64,000 bases of DNA from Escherichia coli (GCF_045037415.1 NZ_CP173438.1), one strand, 5' to 3'; shown: positions 42,101 through 48,100, counted from the stretch's first letter. Numbers are program-made.

Positions 42101-45100
42101 GGCGCATGGCCAGTCCAGGGAGGTATCCGACAAGGACTCCTTCTGAGCGGGCAACGGCGACAGGTAACGCACCGATGGTAGCTGGCTGATCAACAACCAG
42201 CAGTATCTGACCATGTTGTTTCAGGTCAGATATTAGCGACCTGAGTTTGTTTTCGTCGTTGGGTAATGCTTTATCGAACAGGCGTTTACCTGAACGATTA
42301 ATGGCTACAGCGTGATGCGTATCTTTACCGACATCAACGCCGATAAAGACCTGGACGGATTCGTAATCGCTGGATTCGGTCATTCTGTCTCCCTTGTATA
42401 TGGGTTAAGCAGATAACCACGGGGAGCAGGTACCGGCATCCACGTTACAGACGGTCCCGGCAAAAGTGCCTGACCTGACCCCTATTAGCGGTTACCAGCG
42501 CCCCACCAGACCCGGTGACATCACCCCCCGGATCATGGACGACTGGGGGCAGTAATCATGCCGGGTCTGGCTGGCTAACACCCCATTATAAGGGGTACGA
42601 ATAAAGTAACGGGGGTGCGAAAAGATGCTTCCGCACGCACGCGCGATAAAGAGGGGATAGTTTTCGTGAGGACAGGGAGAGAAGCAGGCGTTCTGATAAT
42701 TGCAGAGTTGTTTTCGGAGGTGGTTACAGTGAGTCAGCCCGTTCCTGGCGAGCAGGAGACTGATATCACCGATGGGATAAGGTTGTCTGATTGGTATTAT
42801 AAATATAAGAAGTCATCAGAGAGTAACGTAAAGGATTTGCCAGAATAACCTAAGAGAGTAAATCTCTCCGGTAACAGAGCGCTGTGAAGCATTCTGTATC
42901 AGAGTGCAAATACATGAACGCTGATGCGTAAAATCAGCAGTGACACGCCAGCTCCCCCTATGCCCATTCCTGTATAAGACATGAACTGAGCGTATTAATG
43001 CTCCTGCCCTGAGACTGAGCCGGTGAGTGAGGGGCTGAGAAATCCCTCTTGACACTGCTCTAACCAGAAATACTTCCCCGGTTGTTGCGGTGCGTCCGGA
43101 TCCCCGATAACGGAACACTAAGGCTGTATTGCGGGACACCAGGTAAGTGGCAGCCCGTAATACGTCAGGAGACGCGGGAAAAGTGAATTCCCACACGCGT
43201 TATAAACTTACCCTTGCGGAGCTGGAAGCCTTTAACTCTGCCGTTGACAACCGGCTGGCAGAACTGACCGCAAATTTTACGAGTGCGTGCTGGCTTCAGT
43301 CTTGTCACCTGAGCGTTCGGTAACGGAGGCGCGGGCGGTAATAGACTGATTTTCAGGTATTACCGGCTTACGGCGTGTGGTTGATATTGAGGGGCTGTGA
43401 GTTTCGCGTATTTGTCAGAAACCCAGACGAGTTTTCCTGTATGGGACGAAATAAGGCAGCGGCAATACCTGGAAAAATTTAATATGGTATGAAGGAGAAC
43501 CTGTCGGTTACGCTTAATATACCCGGTACACTGTCAGCTCAGGGGATACATGAACCGTTATCTCACCAGCTACACAGTATATACACACTGACGCTGACAG
43601 TAGTCAGCAGGACCACAATAATCAGTGCCAGCAGTATGGTAACGATACGGTCTGTATTCCGGTAATAGCCGAAGGGGTCGACAGAACCACAATACGGGCA
43701 ACACACTGTATTATGAGTAATCGCGTTTCCACAGTCCCTGCACTTCTTTTTGCGTATCACCATCACTCCCTCCTCACAGCCTTACCCGTAACCGGTTTTT
43801 TACATTAAAAAAACAACGCTGAAAATTCAACCGTCAGTCCGGAGACGACCGTTCGGGTTATCACAGAGTGCCTGAGACAGTGCCCTGCCGGAGGTCACTT
43901 CAGGGACTCTGCGCATTTTTTACGACGTGGCTATTCCGTATGAACCATACGGAGATTTAACCATGACCTACAAATACAACCCCTTCTGGCAGCAACGTAT
44001 TCGTGAGACAGTGCGGCACGCACTGAATGTTCATCCCCGCCTGACGGCATTGCGGGTTGACCTGCGTTTCCCGGATGTACCGGCAGCAACGGACGCAGCT
44101 GTGATATCCCGCTTCATCAATGCCCTGAAAGCCCGAATCGACGCTTACCAGAAACGTAAGCATCGGGAAGGTAAACGCGTGCATCCCACCACTCTGCATT
44201 ACGTCTGGGCCCGGGAGTTTGGGGAGTGCAAAGGTAAAAAACACTATCATCTGATGCTGCTGGTCAACCGGGATACCTGGTGTCGTGCCGGTGATTACCG
44301 CGCTCCGGGATCACTGGCCGGAATGATTGAACAGGCCTGGTGCAGTGCCCTGGGGGTGGATGCCGGATGCCATGCCACGCTGGTGCATTTTCCGGCCTGG
44401 CCGGCGGTGTGGCTGGCGCGTAATGATGACACCGGCTTTCAGCAAGTGCTGGAACGTGCTGACTATCTGGCGAAGGAGCATACCAAAGCTCACTGCACCG
44501 GTGAGCGCAACTTTGGCTGCAGTCGTGGCTGAGCCAGACAGACGAGTTATCTGACTTCAGTGTGATGACGTGTTCATGGCCACCACACTGATTTTCCCTT
44601 ATGAGACTGAACTGAAACCGCCATTCACACCTGACCACGCTGCCCGTACCGGGACGGCTGTTGCCTGCGTGTCGTCTGACGGTAAGGAACATATACTATG
44701 TACGCAAAATCCTTTCTCGCTCTTGATAGCAACGGACGTCTGACGGGCGCCCGTACTGTACAGGCCGCACCTTATGCTCACTACACCTGCCACTTGTGTG
44801 GCAGTGCACTCAGATACCATCCGCAATACGACACTGAACTTCCCTGGTTTGAACACACTGACGACAGGCTGACAGAGCACGGTCAACAGTGCCCTTATGT
44901 CAGGCCGGAGCGCAGAGAAATACAGTTGATTAAACGTCTGCAGCAATTCGTACCGGATGCCTTACCCGTGGTGCGTAAAGCCAGCTGGCACTGCAGACAA
45001 TGTCACCACGATTATTATGGGGAGCGGTACTGCACACACTGCCAGACCGGAGGATTCAGTATTCCCCGGACAACTCAGGAGGAAATATGCGAATTCTGAA

Positions 45101-48100
45101 CTGTTATATGGCGAATGACAGCAAAGGCCATTTTGTTACGGCGAAAGAAGCAGCGAAGCACAACCGCCAGGACGTTTTGTGCTGTGTGTCCTGTGGATGC
45201 CCGTTAACACTTCAGCGGGGCAATGACGGACAACCACCGTGGTTTGAACATGACCAGATGACTGTCGCTGAGAAAATCCTGCTGCGATGCACCTGGCTTG
45301 ACCCGGCAGAGAAAGAGGCCCGTCGTTTGCATCTGCAGGGTATGACGGTTCCGGATTATACGGTGAAGGTGAGAAAGTGGTTTTGTGTGATGTGTGACGA
45401 AGATTATGAAGGAGAAAAGTGCTGCCCGAGTTGTGGTACCGGGGTATACAGCAGGGAGGGGGGGCTGCAGGAAGGCAACTGGAAGGATAGGAACTGAGCG
45501 GTTCAGTCGCGGAAATCAGTTGTAGAGCTGTAATGATATCTCCGGGAGTGCTGCGTTGGTAGGGGCATCCCGGGATAGAGAAATTTTAGCACTTTGCCCT
45601 GAATGATTGTAGACGTCCCGGGTACTCGTACCGGTCTGAGTTATTACAGTTAGATATTCACTTTTTCTCCCGCATACTTCACATCTGTCAACGACGGATG
45701 AAAAGTGGTTCTTCCGCAACCTGGGTGGAAGAAAATGGATGAAACTTTCTGGCGAACAAGGATCTAAGCTGTTTTAAGTTATGGGCAACGCAATGCACTC
45801 TCTTAAGACACTTCTACAGTTACCTTGCGGATGGCGATGCAGTCGACAAATTATTAGCTCTGACGGTATAACCCTCCATCTCCACGGAAAACGCAAAACA
45901 GCACAATGTCCTGAATGCTTTAAGCGTAGCGACTCTGTTCATAGTTGTCGTCGGCGCCGGATACAGCATCTACCCTGCTCAGGGCAGACGCTATGGCTTG
46001 TATTTTCCGTCCGCCACTGGTACTGCCGTAACCCGGCTTGTTAACGTAAAATTTTTGCCGAGTCGCTTGCTCCCTTCGCCGGTTCACACCAGCAGTCTTC
46101 ACAGGCGTTACAAAATTTACAACGTCAACTGGGATTAATAGCTGGAGGTGAGGCTGGAAAACGGGCTGCAACGGCAGCGGGTCTCCGTTGCAGTGCTGAT
46201 ACTCTTCTTCGCAGGGTTATCAATACCCCGGAGACGAAACAGTCAGGCGCGCCTCATGTCGGTATTGATGAGTGGGCGTGGCATCGGGGCCACTGCTGCG
46301 GTATGTTAATAGTCAATCTTGATACTCACCGTCCCCTCGTCCTGCTTCCCGGCCGTGATCAGCGTACGCTGGCGACCTGGTTCAGAAAATATCCGGAAAT
46401 ACAGGTTGTCTCGCGTGATCGCAGTGGAGTCTATGCGACAGCAGCACGTGAAGGTGCACCTCAGGCCAGACAGGTGGCCGATCGATGGCACCTGCTAAAA
46501 AGTATTGGTGATGAGCCTGAACGAATGATGTACAGACATATGCCTCTGATACGTCTTGTTGTCAGAGAGTTATCACTGAAGAAATCACCTGAGCCAGAAA
46601 TATCTGTGCCTGTAGCATCGCTCCGTCGTCCGGAACGCCTTAAACAGCAAACCCGCAAAAAACGGCATCAGCATTGGACAGAGGTTATGGCCCTGCATAA
46701 CAAGGGATGTAGTTTCAGGGAAATATCCCGTATTACAGGCCTGTCGCGAGTGACAGTCAGTCGCTGGGTGCGTTCAGGAACATTCCCTGAAATGTCAACC
46801 CGGCCTCCAAAGCGAGGGCTTCTGGACCCATGGAGGGAGTGGTTAAAAGAGCAACGAGAAAGTGGTAATTATAATGCCAGCCGGATATGGCGGGAAATGG
46901 TGGCCCAGGGGGGGACAGGCAGTGAAACCATCGTCAGGGATACTGTTGCCAAATGGCGTAAAGGCTGGAACCCACCGGTTACTACTGCCGCAAGACTTCC
47001 TTCAGTGTCCCGGGTAAGCCGCTGGTTGATGCCCTGGAGAATAATCAGGGGCGAAGAAAATTATGCATCCCGATTTATTAGTCTGATGTGTGAAAAAGAA
47101 CCGGAGTTGAAAATAGCACAGCAACTGGTACTCGAGTTCTACCGTATTCTGAAAACCTAAAATAAATCACAGCTAAGCAGCTGGTTCACTCGAGTTCACG
47201 AAAGCGGCTCAGCAGAACTTCGGTGCGTAGCTGCGGGGATGGAAGCTGATGCTGCGGCTATATGTGAGGCAATCAGCAGTCGCTGGAGTAATGGTGTTGT
47301 CGAAGGTCATGTAAATCGCCTGAAGGTGCTGATACGCCAGATGTATGGTCGAGCCGGATTTGAACTACTTAGGCGGAGGGTAATGAGTCCACTGGCATGA
47401 AAATCTTCACCTAGGTTGCGGAAGAGCCACTTTTGCACTGTTCGTGACAGTATGGCCTTTATGTACTCACTTTGTTACCGGTAGCTGAATCATCACTACC
47501 GTGCTGCAAATGGTGGTGAACAGCATCAATTGTGGAATGAATGTTGCCGAAGCGACCAATGCGCCTCGTTTCCACCATCAGTGGTTGCCGGACTAGCTGC
47601 GTGTTGAAAAGGGTTTAGTCCGGATACGCTCAAGCTGCTGGAAGCAAAAGGTCAGAAAGTGGCGCTGAATGAGGCGATGGGCAGCACGCAAAGCATTATG
47701 GTTGGGTCGGATGGTGAGTTGTACGGCGCATCCGACTCGCGCTTGGTGGATGATTTAACGGCGGGGTATTAATTGACATCCCCCGGCGCAGTGTGCCGGG
47801 GGATAATGGTTTTATGCGGTCAATAATCGTCCGGGATTATCGATACAGAGTTTTTTGAGGATCGTTTTATCGACGCCGCGCTCCGCCAGATAGGCCAGAA
47901 AAACATCTGGAACAAATCCCCAGCCATTACCGCCATTTTTAGCCCACATTTGTTTAAGGAAGACATCGTGGCTGAGAACAAGCTGATCGGCGTATCCCAA
48001 CTCAATGAGATGAGCGACGGCATCGGCAGTCTCCTGCACCCCTGGCGCTATTCCCTCTTTCGGGAAGGTAATGTCTAGGCCAATCATGTCGAATTCCAGC

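Follow-up and report, generated by a model that had tools for sequence, protein, structure and literature searches.

We identified a pair of overlapping genes for small zinc-ribbon (ZnR) proteins, designated ZnR-A and ZnR-B, in the core of a genomic island of Escherichia coli (GCF_045037415.1, NZ_CP173438.1). The locus lies in a stretch of 64,000 nucleotides (nt), here called the window, whose positions are counted from its first letter. Each protein probably consists of two zinc modules, an N-terminal finger of the CoiA_N type and a C-terminal C4 zinc ribbon, and would be non-catalytic. Their genes belong to the core, not the cargo, of Enterobacterales islands, where they are linked to a gene for a Rep-like protein of the HUH type. 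The reading toward which we lean, tentatively and with somewhat less than even confidence, is that the pair acts as a zinc-finger accessory or regulator of the nickase/AlpA core module of these islands.

A scan for open reading frames (ORFs) and direct reading found all four ORFs of the locus where a sequence-only reading of the window had placed them. Three of these, and a non-coding element between them, are the main subjects here; the fourth, on the opposite strand, is described with the other island genes.

43963-44532, + strand, YagK/YfjJ-family ("inovirus Gp2 family") protein, 189 amino acids, RefSeq start
44612-44697, + strand, conserved non-coding element abutting the ZnR-A start codon
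44698-45099, + strand, ZnR-A (paralog A), 133 amino acids, Pfam DUF7828 and Zn_ribbon_11
45087-45497, + strand, ZnR-B (paralog B), 136 amino acids, Pfam DUF7828 and Zn_ribbon_11

Domain organization of ZnR-A and ZnR-B

The two proteins are true tandem paralogs, as had been noticed from the sequence alone. They share 32% identity (BLASTP E 5e-16), a resemblance far beyond chance, their genes overlap by 13 nt, and the same motif layout is found in both: a CxxC motif, PWFEH and a C-terminal Cys cluster. In ZnR-A, these motifs are C31-x2-C34, P49WFEH53, C65 and C99-x2-C102-x9-C112-x2-C115. The sequence-only reading had not recognised a named family, and here it needs correction. Both proteins matched two Pfam profiles in N-to-C order, DUF7828 (PF25165) and Zn_ribbon_11 (PF11682, formerly DUF3279), with E values of 9.6e-31 and 1.2e-9 for ZnR-A and 7.9e-31 and 6.6e-18 for ZnR-B, which also showed weak matches to DUF7830 and CoiA_N. 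They are full-length, high-scoring members with the same two-domain architecture, and of the 23 aligned relatives all matched DUF7828 and 22 matched Zn_ribbon_11 (E<=0.001). RefSeq names such proteins "putative zinc ribbon protein" or "zinc-ribbon domain-containing protein", and some relatives in UniProt and the AlphaFold database (AFDB) appear as "Ybl85" or "DUF3279". The family is thus already catalogued and extremely common, and it is functionally uncharacterised: the profiles led to domains with no assigned function and not to a well-characterised housekeeping family. NCBIfam and PHROGs gave no significant match for the paralogs, a sequence search of the PDB returned nothing below E 0.46, and a Foldseek search of AFDB50 recovered only the family itself, with no relative of annotated function.

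An alignment of 23 diverse sequences spanning genera showed that six of the seven cysteines are invariant, namely the N-terminal CxxC pair, the Cys after FEH and three of the four C-terminal ones. Conservation is 90% or higher for the FEH of WFEH, for a Trp preceding the C-terminal cluster and for the Cys that opens the last pair. The putative zinc ligands, C31, C34, H53 and C65 in the N-terminal module and C99, C102, C112 and C115 in the C-terminal one, are invariant or nearly so. The AlphaFold2 model of ZnR-A (predicted local distance difference test, pLDDT, 71) contains a beta-rich N-terminal module, a helix at residues 72-82 and a small C-terminal ribbon.

The N-terminal module resembles the corresponding part of CoiA, a DNA-processing protein with a putative C2H2 zinc finger at its N-terminus followed by a PD-(D/E)XK nuclease domain (bioRxiv 10.1101/2024.02.06.579203). 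We compared the family profile with real CoiA N-terminal sequences carrying CoiA_N (PF25164). One of them (P0307, residues 2-54) was aligned by hhalign with a probability of 91.8% and E 7e-7, the CxxC motif lying under CPVC and PWFEH under PHFAH; for a second CoiA sequence (P0308) the probability was 59%. Direct Pfam matches to CoiA_N were weak, with 4 of the 23 family members matching and a best E value of 3.4e-3. The likeness covers the N-terminal 50 residues of the ZnR proteins and includes a beta-hairpin (A-x-D/E-x-G), the CxxC motif and an aromatic-F-x-H knuckle. Beyond it the two families differ: where CoiA continues into its nuclease, the ZnR proteins have a helix and the C4 ribbon, and they are found in an island core operon, whereas CoiA belongs to the competence regulon.

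This comparison bears on a question raised by the sequence-only reading, whether PWFEH forms a nuclease-like active site. Such an enzymatic role would agree with WFEH, whose Glu and His are kept in 90% or more of members, and with the presence of a PD-(D/E)XK nuclease in the related CoiA. However, the motif aligns with the PHFAH knuckle of the CoiA finger, the PD-(D/E)XK domain (PF06054) was not found in either paralog, and the ZnR model lacks a nuclease fold. We regard an enzyme as very improbable. PWFEH is best read as a zinc-finger knuckle and not as a catalytic site, because the segment with which it aligns belongs to a putative zinc finger. Since the first His of the CoiA HFAH is replaced by Trp here and the downstream C65 is invariant, C65 is probably the fourth ligand of the N-terminal finger, which would make it a C2HC rather than a C2H2 finger.

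The HUH Rep-like neighbor

The presence of a YagK/YfjJ-like gene upstream of the pair had also been proposed, and the profile search bears it out (Pfam YagK_YfjJ_C, E 2.4e-47; a match to REP_ORF2-G2P was weak). The RefSeq start at 43963 is used here; the sequence-only reading had used an alternative GTG at 43927. Two motifs stand out, H94-Y-H96 and Y168-x-x-K171. None of 11 homologs departs from either His, and for Y168 and K171 conservation reaches at least 90%. The AlphaFold model (pLDDT 85; predicted template modelling score 0.84) has the alpha/beta fold of Rep proteins, and in the PDB it is closest to HUH Rep and nickase domains. PHROG matches of the gene itself are of unknown function. 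Judged from the model, the protein is a minimal HUH Rep/nickase-like domain with predicted nicking activity.

The fold, HxH and YxxK are common to this protein and to HUH rolling-circle Reps and nickases such as Ff/inovirus gpII, the nuclease domains of parvovirus NS1 and adeno-associated virus Rep, SIRV1 ORF119 and pMV158 RepB. Unlike these, the YfjJ-like protein is a bare nuclease domain of ~190 amino acids without a helicase or oligomerisation domain, and its zinc-ribbon partners have no counterpart in those systems.

Conserved gene order across islands

We analyzed the context of the ZnR genes in 30 loci by gene calls with Pfam labels, RefSeq annotation and profile scans. Among the 18 distinct loci with at least 1.5 kb of upstream sequence, 15 carry a YfjJ-like HUH gene no more than ~1.6 kb upstream on the same strand, often with a gene for AlpA between. 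The linkage was observed in E. coli (two island types), Salmonella enterica, Providencia, Edwardsiella, Dryocola, Superficieibacter, Yokenella, Serratia and a Klebsiella plasmid. The only linked genes detected at the ZnR loci of S. diarizonae (L017) and Mixta (L018) were AlpA and the downstream HUH-less copy, and the locus of E. coli B (L006) is a deletion remnant.

Several arrangements occur. In Providencia, Edwardsiella and Dryocola, the order is YfjJ-AlpA-ZnR with a single ZnR copy, followed by variable cargo (ars operon, type VI secretion system, Hachiman-like genes). In Superficieibacter, Yokenella and an island on a Klebsiella IncF/HI1B plasmid (NZ_CP110517.1), YfjJ-AlpA-ZnRA-ZnRB is followed by a Gp2-like gene without HxH. 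A truncated HUH gene precedes ZnRA-ZnRB and a UCP030791/Gp2-like gene in Salmonella, and Rep-like plus ZnR units are repeated in Serratia sp. Ag1. A second E. coli island type (L028) contains AlpA, a 200-amino-acid protein, a divergent HUH gene, ZnR-A and TerB/BrxC-like cargo.

The gene that follows ZnR-B in other genera (Pfam UCP030791, RefSeq "inovirus-type Gp2 protein") is itself a YfjJ/Gp2-like paralog, which aligned with the YfjJ profile with an hhalign probability of 93.6% and has lost both HxH and YxxK. In the Klebsiella plasmid island, it is followed by a DUF2913 gene. In the window, its position is taken by an ISL3-family transposase pseudogene, which interrupts the operon directly after ZnR-B. 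The HUH-less gene was located as follows:

L026, 9900-10466, HUH-less Gp2-like gene
L007, 10852-11391, HUH-less Gp2-like gene
L019, 10815-11468, HUH-less Gp2-like gene
L024, 10725-11447, HUH-less Gp2-like gene

The AlpA-like gene of the window and a companion that encodes a 200-amino-acid protein are on the opposite strand to the YfjJ operon, with an IS110-family element in between. A similar companion occurs in L028 (8487-9086), where it follows AlpA and precedes the Rep-like gene and ZnR; the two proteins are 59% identical (E 5e-82). No Pfam family matched the companion, which looks like another unstudied island core gene. The genes on the AlpA side of the locus, and the pseudogene downstream of ZnR-B, are:

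40089-40691, - strand, 200-amino-acid protein, AlpA companion
40785-40991, - strand, AlpA/Vis-family regulator (RefSeq "helix-turn-helix transcriptional regulator"; AlpA profile E 3.3e-30)
41187-42383, - strand, ISEc20, intact IS110-family transposase
43180-43323, + strand, truncated Hha/YmoA-family gene
45781-47400, + strand, ISL3-family transposase pseudogene (RefSeq "ISL3 family transposase, internal stop")

ISEc20 and the truncated Hha/YmoA-family gene both separate the AlpA-like gene from the YfjJ operon. Strain CFS3246 has an intact Hha gene and lacks the IS110-family element.

The cargo varies from locus to locus (ars operon, type VI secretion system, Hachiman-like genes, TerB/BrxC-like genes, resistance-nodulation-division efflux) and starts just downstream of the ZnR operon, and the ZnR genes stay put. 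They are core genes. The opposite arm of these islands carries a separate operon, GTPase(YeeP)-DUF905-DUF932-antirestriction-RadC-DUF987-CbeA/CbtA.

Islands of the P4-like/CP4-57 type and Pseudomonas islands at the tmRNA site share the same core set of Int, AlpA and a Gp2-like gene. In both, the Gp2-like gene and AlpA lie at the integrase-distal end, side by side in the Pseudomonas islands, and defence-rich cargo separates them from the integrase (bioRxiv 10.1101/2024.08.29.610337 for the Pseudomonas islands); the text of that paper mentions no zinc-ribbon genes. The local layout of the ZnR islands recurs in the Shigella SRL pathogenicity island, in which orf38, described as having "no similarity", lies beside orf39 (YfjJ), orf40 (Hha) and orf41 (Vis/AlpA) (PMC6980539). 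In E. coli K-12, CP4-57, CP4-6 and CP4-44 contain YfjJ or YagK and lack ZnR genes, which is probably why the latter have received little study. As far as sequence comparison indicates, the ZnR pair is an Enterobacterales-specific addition to the Int/AlpA/Gp2 module.

A conserved element upstream of ZnR-A

Alignment of upstream DNA revealed a non-coding block of 75-85 nt that ends at the ZnR-A start codon (~44612-44697 in the window). Between E. coli and S. diarizonae, Mixta, Superficieibacter, Yokenella or the Klebsiella plasmid, this element is 78-88% identical, above the 47-54% identity of ZnR-A third codon positions for the same genus pairs. Each locus with an A-type gene has a single copy of its core, C[AC]GGGACGG[CA]T (44649-44659), always 45-58 nt upstream of that gene; K-12 and loci with only B-type genes have none. 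Over 0.6 Mb we found one extra match, compared with ~1.1 expected by chance.

A coding sequence is excluded by 1-nt indels. A structured RNA or a hairpin origin is unsupported: there was no Rfam match, the RNAalifold consensus was not convincing (only 5 pairs, -4 kcal/mol), and single-sequence folding gave z-scores of 0.0 for RNA and -0.9 for DNA. Because it is conserved, specific for A-type genes and without a signal of RNA or DNA structure, the element has the look of a promoter, or of a site bound sequence-specifically by a protein, that is tied to ZnR-A; it is a candidate operator, promoter or leader. A promoter and terminator scan gave no more sites than shuffled sequence, and short repeats in the region showed nothing convincing. 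By eye, a sigma-54-like pattern (GG-N10-GC in CGGGACGGCTGTTGCC) fits loosely in E. coli and does not fit in Serratia.

Distribution and evolution of the family

The family comprises 384 clusters at 90% identity, and a hidden Markov model (HMM) search of 1.84 billion representatives gave 257 matches at the 50% identity level. Among the matches listed, the 50%-identity representatives are short stand-alone proteins. A longer match that we examined (P0212, 203 amino acids) has no recognisable second domain, and no informative fusion to an enzymatic domain was found among the listed matches, the sole fusions being ZnR-ZnR. These natural single-chain proteins include an A-B fusion (P0023, 11 members) and a protein with an extra N-terminal domain followed by a full ZnR (P0126, 4 members from different samples). 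A scan of genome contigs by a single peptide pattern yielded 10 loci.

Every named source is a member of Enterobacterales, i.e., Escherichia, Salmonella, Citrobacter, Enterobacter, Klebsiella, Serratia, Edwardsiella, Providencia, Dryocola, Mixta, Yokenella, Superficieibacter, Erwinia, Budvicia, Buttiauxella, Yersinia, Pectobacterium, Cedecea and Leclercia, except for matches in metagenome-assembled genomes labelled Collinsella (L016, a contig) and Veillonella (P0002). These copies, in bins assigned to Gram-positive or Negativicutes organisms, are 93-97% identical to E. coli and most likely reflect contamination or mis-binning, not transfer. Within E. coli, the stretch 43400-45700 is 100% identical in SK1144 and many other isolates, and it is present in 3,822 of 5,426 complete genomes (~70%), with a median of two occurrences in each. 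About 2,990 complete E. coli genomes carry 80% or more of the A/B pair.

The A and B types form two old clades, with identities across genera of 51-79% within A, 42-76% within B and 19-31% between A and B. Single copies are B-like in Edwardsiella and divergent in Providencia and Dryocola. The order A-then-B and an overlap of 1-13 nt are kept in seven of eight tandem loci (E. coli, Salmonella, Mixta, Superficieibacter, Yokenella, Serratia oryzae and the Klebsiella plasmid), which indicates translational coupling. In the window, an AGGAGG Shine-Dalgarno sequence for ZnR-B is located inside the 3' end of ZnR-A. Where synonymous divergence (dS) is unsaturated, the ratio of nonsynonymous to synonymous divergence (dN/dS) is 0.11-0.28 for ZnR-A and 0.13-0.33 for ZnR-B, so both paralogs are under purifying selection across genera. 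In contrast, all differences in ZnR-A among three E. coli strains (the window, L005 and L006) are nonsynonymous (dN 0.006-0.019, dS 0), although these 4-6 changes, none of them synonymous, are too few for significance.

These data can be set against the idea that, in this E. coli island, both genes are remnants in decay and no longer functional. Consistent with decay, the operon is cut by the ISL3 pseudogene, the adjacent AlpA is absent, insertion sequence (IS) debris lies around the locus, some E. coli copies have internal stops, and the few strain differences in ZnR-A point the same way. On the other hand, both frames are intact with good Shine-Dalgarno sequences, the pair is widely held in E. 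coli, dN/dS across genera is well below 1 and the upstream element is conserved. Decay thus appears improbable to us.

A role in defence or anti-defence, for example by phage sensing or by blocking a restriction or immune protein of the host during entry, had been hinted at by the sequence-only reading. The proteins are small, duplicated and cysteine-rich, they share their mobile element with RadC and an antirestriction (ArdB/KlcA-type) gene, and the pair adjoins the variable region, which in several loci contains defence systems with Hachiman-like and BrxC/TerB-like genes and the equivalent of which in K-12 CP4-57 holds AbpAB/RnlAB. Nevertheless, PADLOC-DB gave no match below E 0.04 for any of the four proteins of the locus, and no homolog of ZnR-B was detected in 50,697 phage genome records. 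Plasmids seldom carry ZnR-A: 33 of 72,556 records matched, and several of those are chromosome-sized. The genes keep a fixed core position while the cargo varies, and they lie on the opposite arm from the antirestriction/RadC operon; the dN/dS values are not like those of an arms race, and the A clade is conserved across genera (51-79% identity). We consider a defence-related function doubtful, and this part of the earlier suggestion is unsupported.

Proposed role of the ZnR pair

The other part of that suggestion, nucleic-acid targeting, fared better: the CoiA_N-type finger and the pair's constant association with an HUH Rep-like gene make a nucleic-acid-related role plausible. In the proposal that we tentatively prefer, ZnR-A and ZnR-B would be made together from translationally coupled genes and would most likely act as a hetero-oligomer. 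The conserved core operon to which they belong, in a family of integrative islands of the CP4-44, CP4-57 and SRL types, is built around the HUH Rep/nickase-like YfjJ/YagK and AlpA, and the pair may serve this nickase/AlpA module as a DNA-recognition or regulatory accessory that helps to regulate or direct the steps by which the island is nicked, replicated, excised or mobilised. Such control would be exerted through the element upstream of ZnR-A, acting in cis.

Several observations weigh against this proposal. Many YfjJ/YagK genes, both K-12 copies included, have no ZnR partner, and therefore the nickase does not need ZnR. The element motif tracks ZnR-A and not YfjJ, and it is more likely a regulatory site of ZnR-A than a nickase origin. 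ZnR proteins have a near-neutral isoelectric point (5.2-8.1), which is untypical of avid DNA binders; because they are not basic, roles as protein-protein adaptors are equally possible. The ZnR-A model is only moderately confident and the geometry of its zinc sites is predicted. The window copy may be only partly functional, since its operon is truncated by an IS element and its AlpA is displaced. Finally, literature searches by family name and by protein accession found no paper on either protein.

Some of these points suit the main rival explanation, in which the pair are stand-alone transcription regulators of the island, autoregulated through the upstream element, that control cargo or core genes and have no direct role with YfjJ. 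Zinc fingers commonly bind DNA, and this too fits a regulator, as do the restriction of the highly conserved element to A-type genes, the occurrence of YfjJ genes without ZnR, and AlpA, a member of a known regulator family, as the immediate upstream neighbor in several genera. However, no recognised DNA-binding regulator domain is present in ZnR-A or ZnR-B, their isoelectric points argue the other way, and the repeated pairing with Rep-like genes, including the HUH-less copy directly downstream, suggests more than chance adjacency. We consider independent regulators unlikely on balance.

The accessory reading has a more ambitious version, in which the operon YfjJ(HUH)-AlpA-ZnR-A/ZnR-B-(HUH-less Gp2-like)-DUF2913 is an undescribed initiation module for island replication or mobilisation. 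Here the CoiA_N-type finger pair would give DNA-site specificity or an on/off switch to a minimal Rep-like nickase, and the element upstream of ZnR-A would be the control site of the module. This is conceivable, if rather unlikely at present; if true, it would help to explain how "cryptic prophage"-type islands such as CP4-44, CP4-57 and the SRL pathogenicity island replicate or move.

For the most part, the result is a clean-up: the family is catalogued, PWFEH becomes a zinc-finger knuckle and the anti-defence idea loses its footing. We found no statement elsewhere that the family is related to the CoiA zinc finger, that it is systematically coupled to HUH Rep-like genes or that ZnR-A has a conserved leader element, and we offer these as modest leads. 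The genes are found, frequently as multiple copies, in ~70% of complete E. coli genomes and form part of the conserved backbone of islands with virulence, resistance and phage-defence cargo. If the pair truly partners the HUH nickase and AlpA, it would offer a handle on excision, copying or mobilisation of an abundant class of islands.

Other features of the island

The mobile-island setting proposed from the sequence is correct. According to RefSeq annotation, the island lies between tmaR and cobU, the CP4-44 position, and the ORFs of the pair are conserved in related islands. It also encodes CbtA/CbeA, DUF987, RadC/JAB, antirestriction and DUF932 genes, a block of a TonB receptor and ATP-binding cassette transporter genes, and several IS elements. 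The fourth ORF of the locus is:

43563-43766, - strand, 67-amino-acid ORF (RefSeq "hypothetical protein")

As had been described, it is a zinc-ribbon ORF with a membrane helix: sequence and hydropathy show CxxC at residues 9-12, CPYC at 23-26 and one hydrophobic helix at ~41-64. Its PHROG matches are weak (best 1.6e-5) and all to families of unknown function. Among the 30 loci, it is confined to those of E. coli, and it is probably a real small gene outside the conserved module.

Two further groups of genes were observed in the same island. An operon on the - strand (23400-27750) encodes a patatin-like phospholipase, an RdcB-family protein and a dynamin-family GTPase. Toward the cobU end (57105-58957, + strand), a gene similar to 3'-phosphoadenosine 5'-phosphosulfate reductase is followed by an IbrB-like (ParB-type) gene, forming an IbrA/IbrB-type pair.

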